From NCBI GenBank assembly GCA_965197395.1, contig CBDANB010000007.1, forward strand, positions 855,594 through 919,593: DNA of 64,000 nucleotides, given 5' to 3'. The translations under genes were made by a program, and so were the position numbers. Shown here one piece after another: positions 1 through 3,456 of the stretch. The number at the start of each line of letters is the position of its first letter. The first letter of the stretch is position 1. The notes under the pieces are model-generated. The model had not been told where the DNA came from. It ran no database searches and worked only from the letters and a program-made list of their open reading frames with translations. Source of the stretch: Vicinamibacterales bacterium. GTDB taxonomy: Bacteria > Acidobacteriota > Vicinamibacteria > Vicinamibacterales > UBA8438.

Positions 1-836
1 TCGGATAGGGCGAGCGTGATGGTGCGCCAATCGGGCGCGCTGGTCGCCGCATCGGTGACGAACGTGTCAAGCGACGGCCGCGCGCTGCCGGCGCCGACCG
101 CTGATACTTCGCCGAACATCACCGGCTCGGCCGACGTGACGATCGGCCCCTGTGGCGGCAACTCGCCCACCACTCGGAAGACGAGGTTGCCTGCCCACTG
201 ATACGACATCGCGGCGCCGCTGGCGACGATGATGGCAAGTGGCACCGCGGCCCAGAAGCCGGTCACGCTGTGCCAGTTGAAGTCCCGGGCGCGGGCGCGG
301 AGGCCGCGGCGATACCAGAGCGCCTGCCGCCATGCCGACCGCGTGGAGGCAAGTGGCCACCAGAGGTAGGCGCCACTCAGAATGAGAAACAGGAATCCGA
401 GATTGGCCGTCGCCGTGAACGTGCGTCCTACGATCCGGACGTCACCATTGAGCGCAAACCAGCGATGCATGTACATCGTGGCGCGCAGAAAGCGCCAGGT
501 GCGGGTGTTGCCGTCGCCCCGAATGTCGCCGGTGTACCGGTCGACGTAACGGTCGCCGGACTCGGACTGGACGACCAACGGGTTGTGTGGATCGGCGTCG
601 ACGGCAACGGCGGTGACGGTCGCTCCGGCCGGCCGGTCGCTCACGGCGCGGGCGACCAGTGTCTCGAGGTCGAGCGGGGAGGCGCCACGGGATGGCGTAG
701 CGCGATACGAAGCGCGCGCCCACTGATTGAGCTGTGCCTCGTAGGTCAGAATGACGCCGGTCACCGCCATCATGAGGATGACCAGCGCCGCGACTAGACC
801 GACCCCGAGATGAATCCAGAAGACGAGCTGGCGCAG
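1..836 (-). CDS. PepSY-associated TM helix (PiuB-like iron-regulated membrane protein), runs off the left edge; absent from the ORF track
   Basis: Manual translation: LRQLVFWIHLGVGLVAALVILMMAVTGVILTYEAQL...MHRWFAL...LILSGAYLWWP...RGLRARARDFNWHSVTGFW. Start codon unclear (AGGAG followed by GTC/CTG, no ATG/GTG). Confidence 0.85.
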   Translation of the reverse strand, partial: MRQLVFWIHLGVGLVAALVILMMAVTGVILTYEAQLNQWARASYRATPSRGASPLDLETLVARAVSDRPAGATVTAVAVDADPHNPLVVQSESGDRYVDRYTGDIRGDGNTRTWRFLRATMYMHRWFALNGDVRIVGRTFTATANLGFLFLILSGAYLWWPLASTRSAWRQALWYRRGLRARARDFNWHSVTGFWAAVPLAIIVASGAAMSYQWAGNLVFRVVGELPPQGPIVTSAEPVMFGEVSAVGAGSARPSLDTFVTDAATSAPDWRTITLALS

Positions 837-844
837 GGAGACGC

Positions 845-1055
845 CTACTCCTGGCTATCCGAATCGGCGCCGTCGCTGCTGCCGCCCGGACAGGCCGCCG
901 TCATCGCAGCGCCGACCGCGATGGATCCAGCCGCCACGGCCCGCCTGAAAGGAGCGGCGATTGACTCGACGCGACACGATGTCCTCGTCCCGCAGCTTCA
1001 GCTTCGCATCCGGTCGTGTCCCGTTCGTCGCCTTGTCGTTCGTCATGTCGGGCAT
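845..1055 (-). pseudogene. Small Tat-signal/lipobox Asp-rich peptide with an apparent 1-nt frameshift near 946-950
   Basis: ATG1055 reads MPDMTNDKATNGTRPDAKLKLRDEDIVSRRVNRRSF. Removing one base at TCCTTTCAGG continues RRAVAAGSIAVGAAMTAACPGGSSDGADSDSQE* (211 nt = 70 codons + 1). Confidence 0.6.
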
Positions 1056-1091
1056 CTTGGAGCCGGTGCGCGAATCTGTCAAGGTGAGGGG

Positions 1092-2264
1092 ATGACCGAC
1101 AGCTTCGCTTGGCTGATCGATCCGCTGCCGGTCGCCTCGTTCGAGGCGGAGTACTACGAGCGGAAGCTCTGCCACGTCGCCCGGTCCGACCCCGACTACT
1201 TCCGGACGGTCCTGAGGGTCGCTGACCTCGACACCGTTCTCGGCAGCCATGCGGCGACCCACCCCGACATCGGCCTCGTGCGCGGTGACACCGACGTGGC
1301 GGTCTCCGACTACGCGAACGACGCCGGCCGCGTCCAGCCACTCGGCGTCGCGCGGTGCTTCGACGAGGGAGCCACCATCGTCTATCGACAGCTCCATCGC
1401 CGCATCCCGGCCCTGGCTCGTCTCTGTGTGGCCCTCGGGCAGCGATTCGCGTCACGCGTGCAAACGAACGTCTACGTCACACCACCACACGCCCAGGGGT
1501 TCCGGCCGCACTGGGATACGCACGATGTCTTCGTCCTGCAGGTGCGGGGCCGCAAGCACTGGACGATCTACGACGGTGGTCCGACGCTGCCGCTCCGCGG
1601 CCAGCGGTTCGAGCCGGATGGCGGGTCGCCCGGGAGCGTCGTGTCGGAGTTCGAGCTGAGCGCCGGCAGCGTCGTCTATCTGCCACGCGGCGTCATGCAC
1701 GCGGCGCGATCGAGCAATGAGGCCTCGATCCACATCACGCTCGGGCTCACGGCGTTCACCTGGGCCGATTTTCTCATCGAGAGCGTGTCGGCCGTGGCGC
1801 TCGATGACGCGTCGCTTCGAGAGAACCTGCCGACCGCGTTCGCGCGCGATGCGTGCTCCGCGGATGAACGGGCGCGCCTGGTCCGCGACAAGCTCTCCGT
1901 CGTCGCGTCGAATCTCGAGGGCGAGCGGGTTTGGCAACGGCTGCACGACGAGGTGCTCGCGTCGAACATGCCGGTGATGACCGACCTGCTGGCCCGCCGG
2001 CTCGACGCCGAGCCGTTGGTCCCGACATCGCGCATTGGCCATCGTCCCGATCTGGTCGTCGAGAGCCGGCATGATGATGACGGTTGCCGTCTCCTGTTCG
2101 GCGGACAGGAGCTGCGGCTTCCGATGGCGGTCGGACCCGCTATCCAGTTCGTGACCACGACGCCCGAGTTCACGGTGGCCGACCTTCCCGATTGTCTCGA
2201 CGACGCCGGCAAGCTGACCCTGGTGTCGCGACTAGTACGCGAGGGCATCCTGCAGCGGCTCTAG
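1092..2264 (+). CDS. JmjC/cupin-4 2-oxoglutarate Fe(II) oxygenase (ROX/YcfD/NO66-like) with C-terminal winged helix
   Basis: HWDTHDVFVLQVRGRKHW (HxD, K) and distal H in GVMHAA. RBS GAGGGG before ATG1092; the ORF-track extension to 810 overlaps the opposite-strand peptide. Confidence 0.85.
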   Translation: MTDSFAWLIDPLPVASFEAEYYERKLCHVARSDPDYFRTVLRVADLDTVLGSHAATHPDIGLVRGDTDVAVSDYANDAGRVQPLGVARCFDEGATIVYRQLHRRIPALARLCVALGQRFASRVQTNVYVTPPHAQGFRPHWDTHDVFVLQVRGRKHWTIYDGGPTLPLRGQRFEPDGGSPGSVVSEFELSAGSVVYLPRGVMHAARSSNEASIHITLGLTAFTWADFLIESVSAVALDDASLRENLPTAFARDACSADERARLVRDKLSVVASNLEGERVWQRLHDEVLASNMPVMTDLLARRLDAEPLVPTSRIGHRPDLVVESRHDDDGCRLLFGGQELRLPMAVGPAIQFVTTTPEFTVADLPDCLDDAGKLTLVSRLVREGILQRL

Positions 2265-3456
2265 TGTCCTGTGTCAGAAATAAGTGAAATAAGTCATGGG
2301 GTCTCGGCGTATTGCTCTGTAAGGAGACGAGCGATGCGCACAGGACGTCCCAGAACCACCGTGACGCTGACCGCGGACGAACGACGGCAATTGGATTCGC
2401 TGGCCCACCGGTCGCGGAGCGCACCGGACGCTGCGCGGCGCGCCCGGATCATTCTGGCGTGCGCCGAGGGGCGTGAAACGACAGCCGTCGCCCGGCGCCT
2501 GCATGTCTCGGCGACGACGGTGTGCAAGTGGCGATCGCGATTTCTTGAGGAGCGAATGGACGGCCTGTTTGATGAACCACGACCTGGCACGCCGCGCACG
2601 ATCACGGATGACCAGATCGAGCGCATTGTCATTCGCACGTTGGAGACGACCCCGCGCGGCGCGACGCACTGGAGCGTCCGCGACATGGCCAAGGCGAGCG
2701 GCATCAGTCCCTCGTCCGTCAATCGCATCTGGCGCGCCTTCGGCCTGCAGCCGCATCGCACTGAGACGTTCAAGTTGTCGCCAGACCCCTTGCTCATCGA
2801 GAAAGTCCGCGACATCGTCGGCTTGTACATGGATCCGCCCGATCACGCGGTCGTCCTGTGCGTCGACGAAAAGTCCCAGATCCAGGCGCTGGATCGGACC
2901 CAACCGTTGCTGCCGATGCGTCCAGGCCAAGTCGAGCGGCGCACCCACGATTACAAGCGGCATGGCACGACGTCGTTGTTTGCCGCCCTCGATGTCAAAA
3001 CGAGTCGTGTGATTAGTCAGTTCCATCGCCGTCATCGGTCGGTCGAGTTCCGGCGGTTTCTCGACGCGGTGGATGCGGCCGTGCCCAGCGACCTCGACGT
3101 GCATCTCATTCTGGACAACTACGGCACGCACAAGACGCCGATCATCTGGAAGTGGCTCGCCAAGCGTCCGCGCTTTCACGTGCATTTCACGCCGACCTAC
3201 GGGTCGTGGCTCAACCTCGTGGAGCGCTGGTTCGCCGCGCTGACCACCCGCCAACTGCGTCGCGGTGCCCATCGCAGCGTCGCGCAACTCGAAGCCGCGA
3301 TTCAGGAGTTCATCGACGCGCATCATGTCGATCCGAAGCCGTTCGTCTGGACCAAAACAGCCGATGAGATCCTCGCGAGCATCGCGCGATTCGCGCAGCG
3401 CACCGCCGATGCCCAGGCCGCAACGACTTATTTCGCGAACCACTGACACAGGACAC
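2264..3456 (+). mobile_element. IS630-family element, copy 1
   Basis: TIR GTGTCCTGTGTCAG / CTGACACAGGACAC, TA duplicated at 2262-63 and 3457-58 in a CTAG context. Inserted in the JmjC stop codon, which the first G of the IS recreates. Confidence 0.92.
2334..3446 (+). CDS. IS630 transposase
   Basis: HTH N-terminus; [30 protein letters not shown] (DDE). AAGGAG RBS. Confidence 0.95.

Follow-up and report, generated by a model that had tools for sequence, protein, structure and literature searches.

A probable degenerate copy of a mobile cassette pairing a ROX-type JmjC oxygenase gene with a predicted Tat-exported, Asp-rich micro-protein in a Vicinamibacterales bacterium

Close to one end of a 64,000-nucleotide stretch of a Vicinamibacterales genome (GenBank assembly GCA_965197395.1, contig CBDANB010000007.1, positions 855,594 to 919,593; the whole stretch is called the window here), a short reading frame broken in two lies between the gene of a JmjC-type 2-oxoglutarate (2OG)/Fe(II) oxygenase and that of a PepSY_TM membrane protein. 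The locus raises the question of whether the broken frame was ever a gene and, if so, why it is interrupted, which of its two neighbours it belongs to, and what the three genes might do together. With moderate confidence, we read it as a decayed copy of a compact and mobile cassette of three genes that occurs in Vicinamibacterales-type Acidobacteriota, in which enzyme and peptide form a pair like those of RiPPs (peptides that are made on the ribosome and modified after translation), the peptide being oxidised in the cytoplasm and then exported by the twin-arginine translocation (Tat) pathway.

The disrupted micro-protein gene (845..1055, minus strand) is split into two frames at about position 947. 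Frame A (minus strand, 1055..948; MPDMTNDKATNGTRPDAKLKLRDEDIVSRRVNRRSF) holds the N-terminus with the leader motif KLRDEDIV (LRDEDIVS) and the twin-arginine motif RRSF, while frame B (minus strand, 946..848; RRAVAAGSIAVGAAMTAACPGGSSDGADSDSQE) holds the hydrophobic region, the tetrapeptide TAAC with its Cys codon at 892..890, and an acidic tail (PGGSSDGADSDSQE) that ends at a TAG stop (847..845, minus strand). When base 947 is skipped the two frames fuse into 69 residues, and the initial annotation was right that a one-base correction yields a 69-residue peptide in which LRDEDIVS, RRSF, the hydrophobic stretch, TAAC and the acidic tail are all present. Its description of the surroundings also holds: the peptide stop abuts the PepSY_TM gene, with 2 nt between the stop and the conserved PepSY N-terminus, and the oxygenase begins 36 bp away on the opposite strand (JmjC_2 start at 1092, peptide ATG at 1055). 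It had further stated that neither the peptide nor the PepSY gene is properly called among the open reading frames (ORFs), and this is explained by the split frame of the former and the lack of an ATG, GTG or TTG at the N-terminus of the latter, because of which a simple ORF finder cannot call either gene. The consequence for the annotation of this genome is that three genes are mis-called or uncalled, the local peptide copy probably being a pseudogene. In G001, a genome of the same genus and the sole close relative compared, the orthologous stretch is intact and encodes a peptide of 70 residues (MPDMTNVKATNRARPDAKLKLRDEDIVSSRVNRRSFLTRAVAAGSIAVGAAMTAACPGGSSDGADSDSQE). An internal 30-residue ORF of the window copy that starts with GTG (845..937) was considered as a functional gene and is unlikely to be one, as it has neither the RR motif nor a charged n-region.

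The frame belongs to a large family. A profile built from six peptides retrieved, at a cut-off of E <= 0.01 and with clustering at 90% identity, at least 168 protein clusters, all of 53-102 residues and all unnamed or labelled "hypothetical"; the few source names given for these clusters are metagenome-assembled genomes (MAGs) of Acidobacteria. HMMER, run exhaustively against 1.84 billion representatives, yielded 69 clusters at 50% identity. Flanked by divergent JmjC and PepSY genes, the peptide gene is intact in G001, G004, G007, G009, G012, G014, G022 and G024; outside the genus of G000 and G001, genomes of six genera carry an intact homologue in this position. Pairwise ratios of non-synonymous to synonymous substitution rates (dN/dS) between genera range from 0.14 to 0.52, with 7-15 synonymous differences per about 50 codons, which indicates that the frame is translated and under selection. 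Judged by these comparisons, the peptide is a real conserved gene, far beyond a chance ORF. A Pfam search with the peptide returned no match, and in NCBIfam the peptides, the JmjC protein and the PepSY protein were all without a match above cut-off. The nearest entry is TIGR02811, "formate dehydrogenase region TAT target", whose proteins of up to 70 residues consist of little beyond a twin-arginine signal; the match is weak (E 0.023; 15 bits against a cut-off of 48), the gene context is different, and the TIGR02811 proteins have neither an Asp-rich tail nor a JmjC neighbour. The peptide family is previously undescribed.

The precursors share a common plan. A basic N-terminal stretch is followed by S-L-T-D-x-D-I-T-T-V-R-V-D immediately before the twin-arginine motif RRSF(L/F), which is found throughout the family, and then by a moderately hydrophobic region of fixed length, the distance from the first Arg to the Cys being 23 residues in 159 of 175 sequences. 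The Cys stands at fixed spacing in 175 of 182 sequences and is preceded by Ala or Gly at -1, by Ala, Thr or Ser at -2, mostly by Thr at -3 and by Leu at -4, L-T-A-A-C being the commonest form (TAAC in 93 of 175). A permissive lipobox pattern fits 166 of the 175 sequences, and the small residues at -3 and -1 suit signal peptidase I equally. The tails are 12-145 residues long (median 23) and contain 22% Asp, 17% Gly, 16% Ser and 8% Thr, with hydrophobic residues nearly absent; homologues with D-x-D motifs, on which the initial proposal depended, are abundant (169 of 175 peptides). Two classes of core can be told apart. In class 1, to which the window copy belongs, C-P-G-G-T-D-S-D-G-x-x-D precedes a run of (Q)ATDSD units that numbers from 0 to about 8, and class 2 has two extra Cys residues in C-D-(S/T/N)-D motifs, often at the extreme C-terminus. 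The number of (Q)ATDSD hexapeptide repeats, of which the short core is often built, varies over this range of 0 to about 8 between otherwise alike genomes (loci L069-L114, peptide 3' ends), and a relative from a sponge MAG has SEAME/SEGAE repeats in their place.

Conservation was computed on 60 representatives of 50% identity or less, and it is concentrated in the leader (L-12 81%, D-10 69%, I-7 71%, T-5 73%, RRSF 87-100%, RRSFL 82-100%), the top residue in the core having a frequency of about 28%. At the level of sequence, precursors of ribosomal natural products show just this combination, in which the leader is conserved and the core varies. The genome encodes both TatC (C8:1267796) and LspA, and with its RR motif, its hydrophobic region and a TatC in the same genome the peptide is a predicted Tat substrate.

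If the family is real, why is the window copy broken? Across 20 kb on either side in this genome (G000) and in G001, the only DNA in common is a block of 2,562 bp that is 95.2% identical, has a single gap and extends from the PepSY stop to the JmjC stop (window -295..2264; G001:C1:5296137-5298698), homology ending exactly at both outer stops. In G001 this block sits among unrelated genes. Since homology is limited to the cassette and the flanks are unrelated, the cassette appears to have relocated as a unit. An IS630-family transposase gene with DDE_3 and helix-turn-helix domains (2334..3446, plus strand) follows directly after the JmjC stop, and a second, different IS630-type gene is found outside the window, 3.4 kb past the PepSY end (L002 6159-7244). 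As the IS630-type transposase genes on the two flanks differ from each other, a simple composite transposon was rejected. The stretch that separates the cassette from the distal IS630 gene also contains, about 1 kb past the PepSY 3' end, an ORF of 270 residues without a Pfam match (L002 8203-9015).

The PepSY_TM gene of the window is itself abnormal. Its 5' part occupies positions 1..842 and the gene runs on to -295 (minus strand, about 380 codons; PF03929, 2.8e-46, profile positions 1-295), the remainder beyond the window having been read from the genome (locus L002). The conserved N-terminus VSLRQLVFWIHLGVG (VSLRQLVFWIH) begins at 842, in the same frame as frame A of the peptide, and the codon at 842..840 is GTC in both G000 and G001 and ATG in all other genera (orthologues begin ATG-TCC-CTG-CGC) except G024. 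No ATG, GTG or TTG occurs from the upstream in-frame stop at 857..855 to the PepSY N-terminus. A CTG at 836..834, 11 nt after an AGGAG, is the sole near-cognate start, and initiation at 773, where the first ATG stands, would cost the protein its first helix and the histidine in it. For PepSY the pair G000 and G001 gives a dN/dS of 0.70, from 20 synonymous and 39 non-synonymous changes, against 0.30-0.54 in other pairs, which suggests relaxed constraint, as estimated from few changes. The spacing is likewise unusual, with 2 nt from the peptide stop to the PepSY start in the window and 51-245 nt elsewhere, again except for G024. In that genome (locus L033) the junction is also 2 nt long, AAG stands for ATG, and PepSY is split into two frames (G024:C12:18942-20216); PepSY is in two frames in G005 as well (G005:C34:6867-8046). 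The 2-nt junction with a replaced ATG in two genera could mean that decay took place independently in each, or that initiation is coupled and non-canonical, using for instance the conserved CTG two codons further along. Read-through or fusion between peptide and PepSY was rejected: in 5 of 12 loci the two lie in one frame, separated by a single stop, compared with about one-third expected by chance in GC-rich DNA, and the spacers range from 2 to 245 nt.

The 36 bp between the two divergent genes (1056..1091, from the peptide ATG to the JmjC start) are shortened too. About 40 orthologous loci have a promoter-like TTGACA-17 nt-TA(G/C)NAT, then a conserved 5' untranslated region (5'UTR) of 40 nt ending in AGGAG-N6-ATG. 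In the window copy the 5'UTR and the Shine-Dalgarno sequence are gone, and a TTGACA-17 nt-CAAGAT on the minus strand, read by eye, leads directly into the peptide ATG. A promoter and terminator scan of positions 700-1400 gave no site above threshold, the TTGACA-17-CAAGAT element being sub-threshold.

The frameshift site itself (938..950, minus strand; assembly letters TTTCAGGCGGGCC) lies directly after the Phe codon of RRSF. DNA alignment of the window with G001 shows a 2-bp deletion and two adjacent substitutions (TTTCTCACTCGG to TTTCAGGCGG), and as the G001 copy is intact, the window copy carries a 2-bp deletion relative to it. It is the only broken copy among about 60 examined. An error of assembly or polishing, in which case the organism would have an intact peptide gene and a working cassette, would be consistent with the intactness of all these other copies, with the return of the 69-residue frame when base 947 alone is removed, and with the fact that related public genomes are, by their titles, long-read MAGs, which can carry indels. 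Nevertheless, the site is not a long homopolymer and the change combines a 2-bp gap with two adjacent substitutions; it is the sole gap in the 2,562-bp alignment, and the genome is 99.4% complete by marker genes. Moreover, a one-base repair gives an RR-Cys spacing of 22 residues, found in 2 of 175 sequences, whereas a two-base repair gives the 23 residues found in G001 and in 159 of the 175. The other signs of decay cluster here as well (the PepSY gene without ATG, its dN/dS of 0.70, the lost 5'UTR). We therefore consider it likely that the frameshift is a real mutation, an error being possible and rather doubtful. The frameshift, the missing PepSY ATG, the elevated PepSY dN/dS, the lost 5'UTR and the flanking insertion sequences together suggest that the cassette in this genus, and in this genome above all, is decaying or at least rearranged. 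The window peptide is most likely a pseudogene inside a relocated cassette, and the local cassette is probably non-functional.

The oxygenase gene, by contrast with the peptide frame, is intact (1092..2264, plus strand; 390 residues; Pfam PF08007, JmjC_2, 1.2e-26). By sequence, the closest characterised proteins are two human enzymes of the ribosomal oxygenase (ROX) group, MINA53 (5e-31) and NO66 (2e-28), followed by Bacillus subtilis YxbC (1e-10) and Escherichia coli YcfD (4e-5). In an AlphaFold2 model (20 homologues, mean predicted local distance difference test score 79) a JmjC barrel is joined by a middle domain of helices and an alpha/beta domain at the C-terminus, and a Foldseek search, with alignment along the whole length of the model, placed NO66 first (9e-30, all three domains), then MINA53, then YcfD (1e-17) and the Rhodothermus enzyme. 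The metal triad H140, D142 and H203 is invariant in 20 sequences, with H140 and D142 aligning with the HxD of MINA53. The structural hallmarks of the ROX group (JmjC_2, an HxD...H triad, a helical dimerisation domain and a C-terminal winged-helix-like domain) are thus all present in the predicted protein. Its dN/dS between G000 and G001 is 0.27, with other pairs at 0.22-0.40. As judged from sequence features and the model, the enzyme is intact and is predicted to be a protein hydroxylase among the 2OG oxygenases. It lacks a signal peptide, so that any action on the peptide must precede export. One orthologue, that of locus L112 (3646-4803), has an in-frame stop and is a partly decayed copy.

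To which neighbour, then, does the peptide belong? Among 41 genomes sampled around this genome, a JmjC orthologue is present in 14, the peptide is present in exactly those 14, and neither occurs in the other 27, one genome retaining a 90-residue remnant of the enzyme and no peptide. A PepSY orthologue is also present in 14 of the 41, and this is a different set: G013, G016 and G019 have peptide and JmjC without PepSY, while G023, G030 and G038 have PepSY without peptide or JmjC. A scan of one genome per species added 47 loci, all from Acidobacteriota and mostly labelled Vicinamibacterales. JmjC lies divergently upstream in all 47, and a close PepSY lies downstream in 40, four more having a divergent PF03929 protein and one locus being at a contig edge; of the 46 class-1 loci that could be evaluated, 44 have PepSY_TM next to the peptide when the divergent subfamily is counted. 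Two of the loci, L092 (5757-6947) and L113 (6075-7265), carry the divergent PF03929 protein (E 1e-55 to 4e-57) together with a protein of 142-164 residues whose family is unassigned. In look-ups of metagenome contigs, JmjC_2 adjoins the peptide in seven of seven cases, four of them reached through distant family members (E 1e-14 to 8e-4), and PepSY was found only in the three class-1 cases. The gene orders of these contigs are divergent, co-directional and once overlapping by 11 nt, and the outer neighbours are different every time. The family as a whole is hosted by soil and sponge Acidobacteria.

A second pair in the same genome bears on the same question. Contig C6 (387316-389179; L058 6317-8180) carries a JmjC_2 paralogue that is 55% identical to the enzyme in the window and, 450 bp downstream of it, an intact class-2 peptide (MPTRDDRKDRRRGSLLDSEVTTVRVDRRSFLSRTVGAGTVAVGAALASACSDRCDSDTVTDRDAGRFADYPDRPRDRTCDKDL) with the same leader and Tat motif and a core containing three Cys (CSDRCDSD...TCDKDL). 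No PepSY gene was found near this pair, and G001 holds the same second JmjC-peptide pair. Downstream of the C6 pair lies a gene for a secreted protein of 329 residues without a Pfam family. Given the 14 of 14 co-occurrence, the universal adjacency and a paralogous pair without PepSY, the tight unit is, on genomic evidence, that of enzyme and peptide, and PepSY_TM is a regular accessory of class 1. The constant adjacency points to an enzyme-substrate pair, and the gene context of JmjC points to a dedicated substrate other than a ribosomal protein. The initial annotation had tied all three genes into one system. Its dedicated JmjC-peptide pair is supported, JmjC orthologues carrying such a neighbour in every case examined (14 of 14 genomes, 47 of 47 and 7 of 7 loci), and so is the PepSY_TM link for class 1; PepSY proved dispensable in the wider family.

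These distributions also bear on the possibility that the peptide goes unmodified and, once exported by Tat, serves the PepSY_TM protein as an acidic lipoprotein or periplasmic partner, and that the JmjC enzyme hydroxylates a ribosomal protein and is merely co-regulated. The closest characterised relatives of the enzyme are ribosomal oxygenases, and the near-constant PepSY_TM neighbour in class 1 would be expected of such a partner. However, the peptide follows JmjC and not PepSY in both directions, in the six discordant genomes named above and in the four distant look-ups; each of two paralogous JmjC genes in one genome has its own peptide; and an enzyme found in only 14 of 41 related genomes would be odd for a ribosome modifier. 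We regard an unmodified peptide as unlikely.

If enzyme and peptide are a RiPP-like pair, the parts of the cassette (a cytoplasmic ROX-type JmjC, a divergent precursor of 70-100 residues, then a FoxB-like PepSY_TM protein) could act in sequence. The oxygenase would dock on the conserved n-region leader and oxidise the acidic core in the cytoplasm, most plausibly by beta-hydroxylation of Asp, and the finished peptide would be exported by Tat. Tat substrates are released only after cytoplasmic maturation, and the use of Tat rather than Sec would make sense because the peptide must be finished before leaving. The signal would be cut at the Cys, with lipidation if signal peptidase II does the cutting or else by signal peptidase I, and the acidic product, located at the membrane or in the periplasm, may bind a metal cation. 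In class 1 the product would work with the PepSY_TM protein as a putative di-haem reductase: histidines of the motifs WIHLG, NWHSV and YAHTG in the first, middle and last helices align with those of FoxB (7ABW), and characterised members of the PepSY_TM family reduce ferric siderophores. Asp beta-hydroxylation is the most economical guess for the chemistry because Asp is common to all cores, because hydroxy-Asp is an Fe(III) ligand in siderophores, and because FIH provides a precedent. JmjC enzymes such as FIH can hydroxylate Asp (PMC11575548).

The identity of the metal is a further guess. Iron is suggested by analogy with the PepSY_TM family and by anecdotal neighbours, and calcium or lanthanides may be alternatives. 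As for the neighbours themselves, TonB-dependent receptors occur in L043 and L112 and a flavodoxin occurs in G019, while an EF-hand protein and dehydrogenases of the pyrroloquinoline quinone type would be compatible with calcium or lanthanides. A fully specified version, in which the Tat signal is the leader, JmjC beta-hydroxylates the Asp of (Q)ATDSD, the Cys is acylated, and a cell-bound chelator of poly-hydroxyaspartate, acting as a membrane-tethered ribosomal siderophore (or as a calcium or lanthanide binder), passes its metal to a FoxB-like di-haem reductase, is improbable as a whole.

Several points weigh against the proposed sequence of events. Gene adjacency indicates functional linkage and does not amount to proof of an enzyme-substrate relation. 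To our knowledge, the residues that characterised ROX enzymes hydroxylate in ribosomal proteins are His or Arg and not Asp. PepSY is absent from class 2, which places the reductase outside the core mechanism, and the sequence similarity between the local PepSY protein and FoxB is marginal (E 0.088). Lipidation of the Cys is uncertain, because position -3 is mostly Thr rather than Leu, Val or Ile and signal peptidase I fits about as well.

The substrate within the precursor might also be the signal peptide rather than the core. The oxygenase could act on, for example, an Arg of R-V-D-R-R, as YcfD acts on Arg, and thereby tie export to O2, Fe or 2OG. The known bacterial ROX enzymes are arginyl hydroxylases, and it is the n-region and RR motif, not the core, that form the most conserved part of the precursor; a docking site, however, predicts a conserved leader equally well, the uniformly Asp-rich cores would be left unexplained, and such a reaction is without precedent. 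We consider modification of the signal peptide quite improbable. Least probable of all is that the micro-ORF is a regulatory upstream ORF whose translation alone controls PepSY: it does lie directly upstream of PepSY in the same operon, with its stop 2 nt from the PepSY N-terminus in two lineages, yet its amino-acid sequence is under purifying selection and carries export signals, and many family members have no downstream PepSY.

The RiPP-like pair can be set beside several known systems. With the ROX proteins (human NO66/RIOX1 and MINA53/RIOX2, E. coli YcfD/RoxA and Rhodothermus marinus YcfD) the enzyme shares JmjC_2, the three-domain fold and the HxD...H triad. The established ROX substrates are an Arg of uL16, a His of uL2/Rpl8 and a His of Rpl27a, and we know of no ROX member with a dedicated neighbouring peptide gene. 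Here, in contrast, every enzyme comes with a predicted exported, Asp-rich peptide that lacks His in its core, and the enzyme is confined to 14 of the 41 genomes. JmjC enzymes acting on RiPP precursors include BipG, an ornithine hydroxylase of the biphenomycin precursor (PMC12707348), and CzlI, a YxbC-like Phe hydroxylase of the curacozole precursor (PMC11575548). As in those systems, a JmjC-type 2OG oxygenase gene stands beside a ribosomal precursor, the modification being known for BipG and CzlI and the genes being what is known here. BipG and CzlI belong to clusters of several enzymes, which use classical leaders and have proteases or transporters of their own, whereas in the cassette JmjC is the sole tailoring gene, the leader takes the form of a Tat signal, and the enzyme belongs with NO66/MINA53 rather than with YxbC.

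Export by a general pathway also has parallels. Bufferins are periplasmic RiPP metallophores that are modified by MNIOs (oxidative enzymes dependent on multinuclear non-haem iron) and use Sec signal peptides as leaders (PMC11626156), and DAG-RiPPs are lipidated and matured via the lipoprotein pathway (PMC13056109). In both, as in the cassette, a signal for general export takes the place of a dedicated leader and transporter, and the invariant Cys at the predicted cleavage site recalls the DAG-RiPPs; cytoplasmic modification ahead of export, and a product that binds metal or is anchored in the membrane as shown for those systems, are, for the cassette, proposals. It differs from both in having a JmjC enzyme instead of an MNIO, a twin-arginine instead of a Sec signal, and in class 1 an Asp-rich core without a Cys-rich fold, and it is known from its genes. 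From the inner-membrane ferric-siderophore reductases FoxB, PiuB and FpvG (PDB 7ABW), with which the predicted PepSY protein of the window shares full-length PF03929 and the helix histidines, it differs in that the partner would be a ribosomal peptide rather than a siderophore made by a non-ribosomal peptide synthetase (NRPS) or an NRPS-independent siderophore synthetase, and in that the local gene has no canonical start. The combination of a sole NO66/MINA53-type enzyme, a twin-arginine leader, an Asp-rich repeat core and PepSY_TM appears in none of BipG, CzlI, the bufferins or the DAG-RiPPs, and a full-text search of the literature collection used here for JmjC together with twin-arginine returned no paper. 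If JmjC does modify the peptide, a second class of substrate, outside the ribosome, would be added for the bacterial counterparts of the human ribosomal oxygenases, Tat would take its place beside Sec and the lipoprotein pathway among the systems that give ribosomal natural products both export and a leader, and the poorly cultured Acidobacteria of soil and sponges would gain a simple metal-binding system of two or three genes.

The region upstream of the intact peptide genes deserves a final remark. The signs of a hairpin or operator in the conserved 5'UTR are too weak to claim, as the inverted repeats of 4-5 bp (GAGA..TCTC in most loci, GGAC..GTCC in the sponge clade) have no shared register, and so is the loose resemblance of the region to a 7-1-7 Fur box. 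In loci L069-L114 a strongly conserved promoter-like block stands at some 100 nt upstream from the start of the peptide gene, together with the 40-nt 5'UTR block GAGACTCGTTCTCATTTTACAGACTCAGGAG and its short inverted repeats, and this conserved sequence could be an operator or an RNA element.

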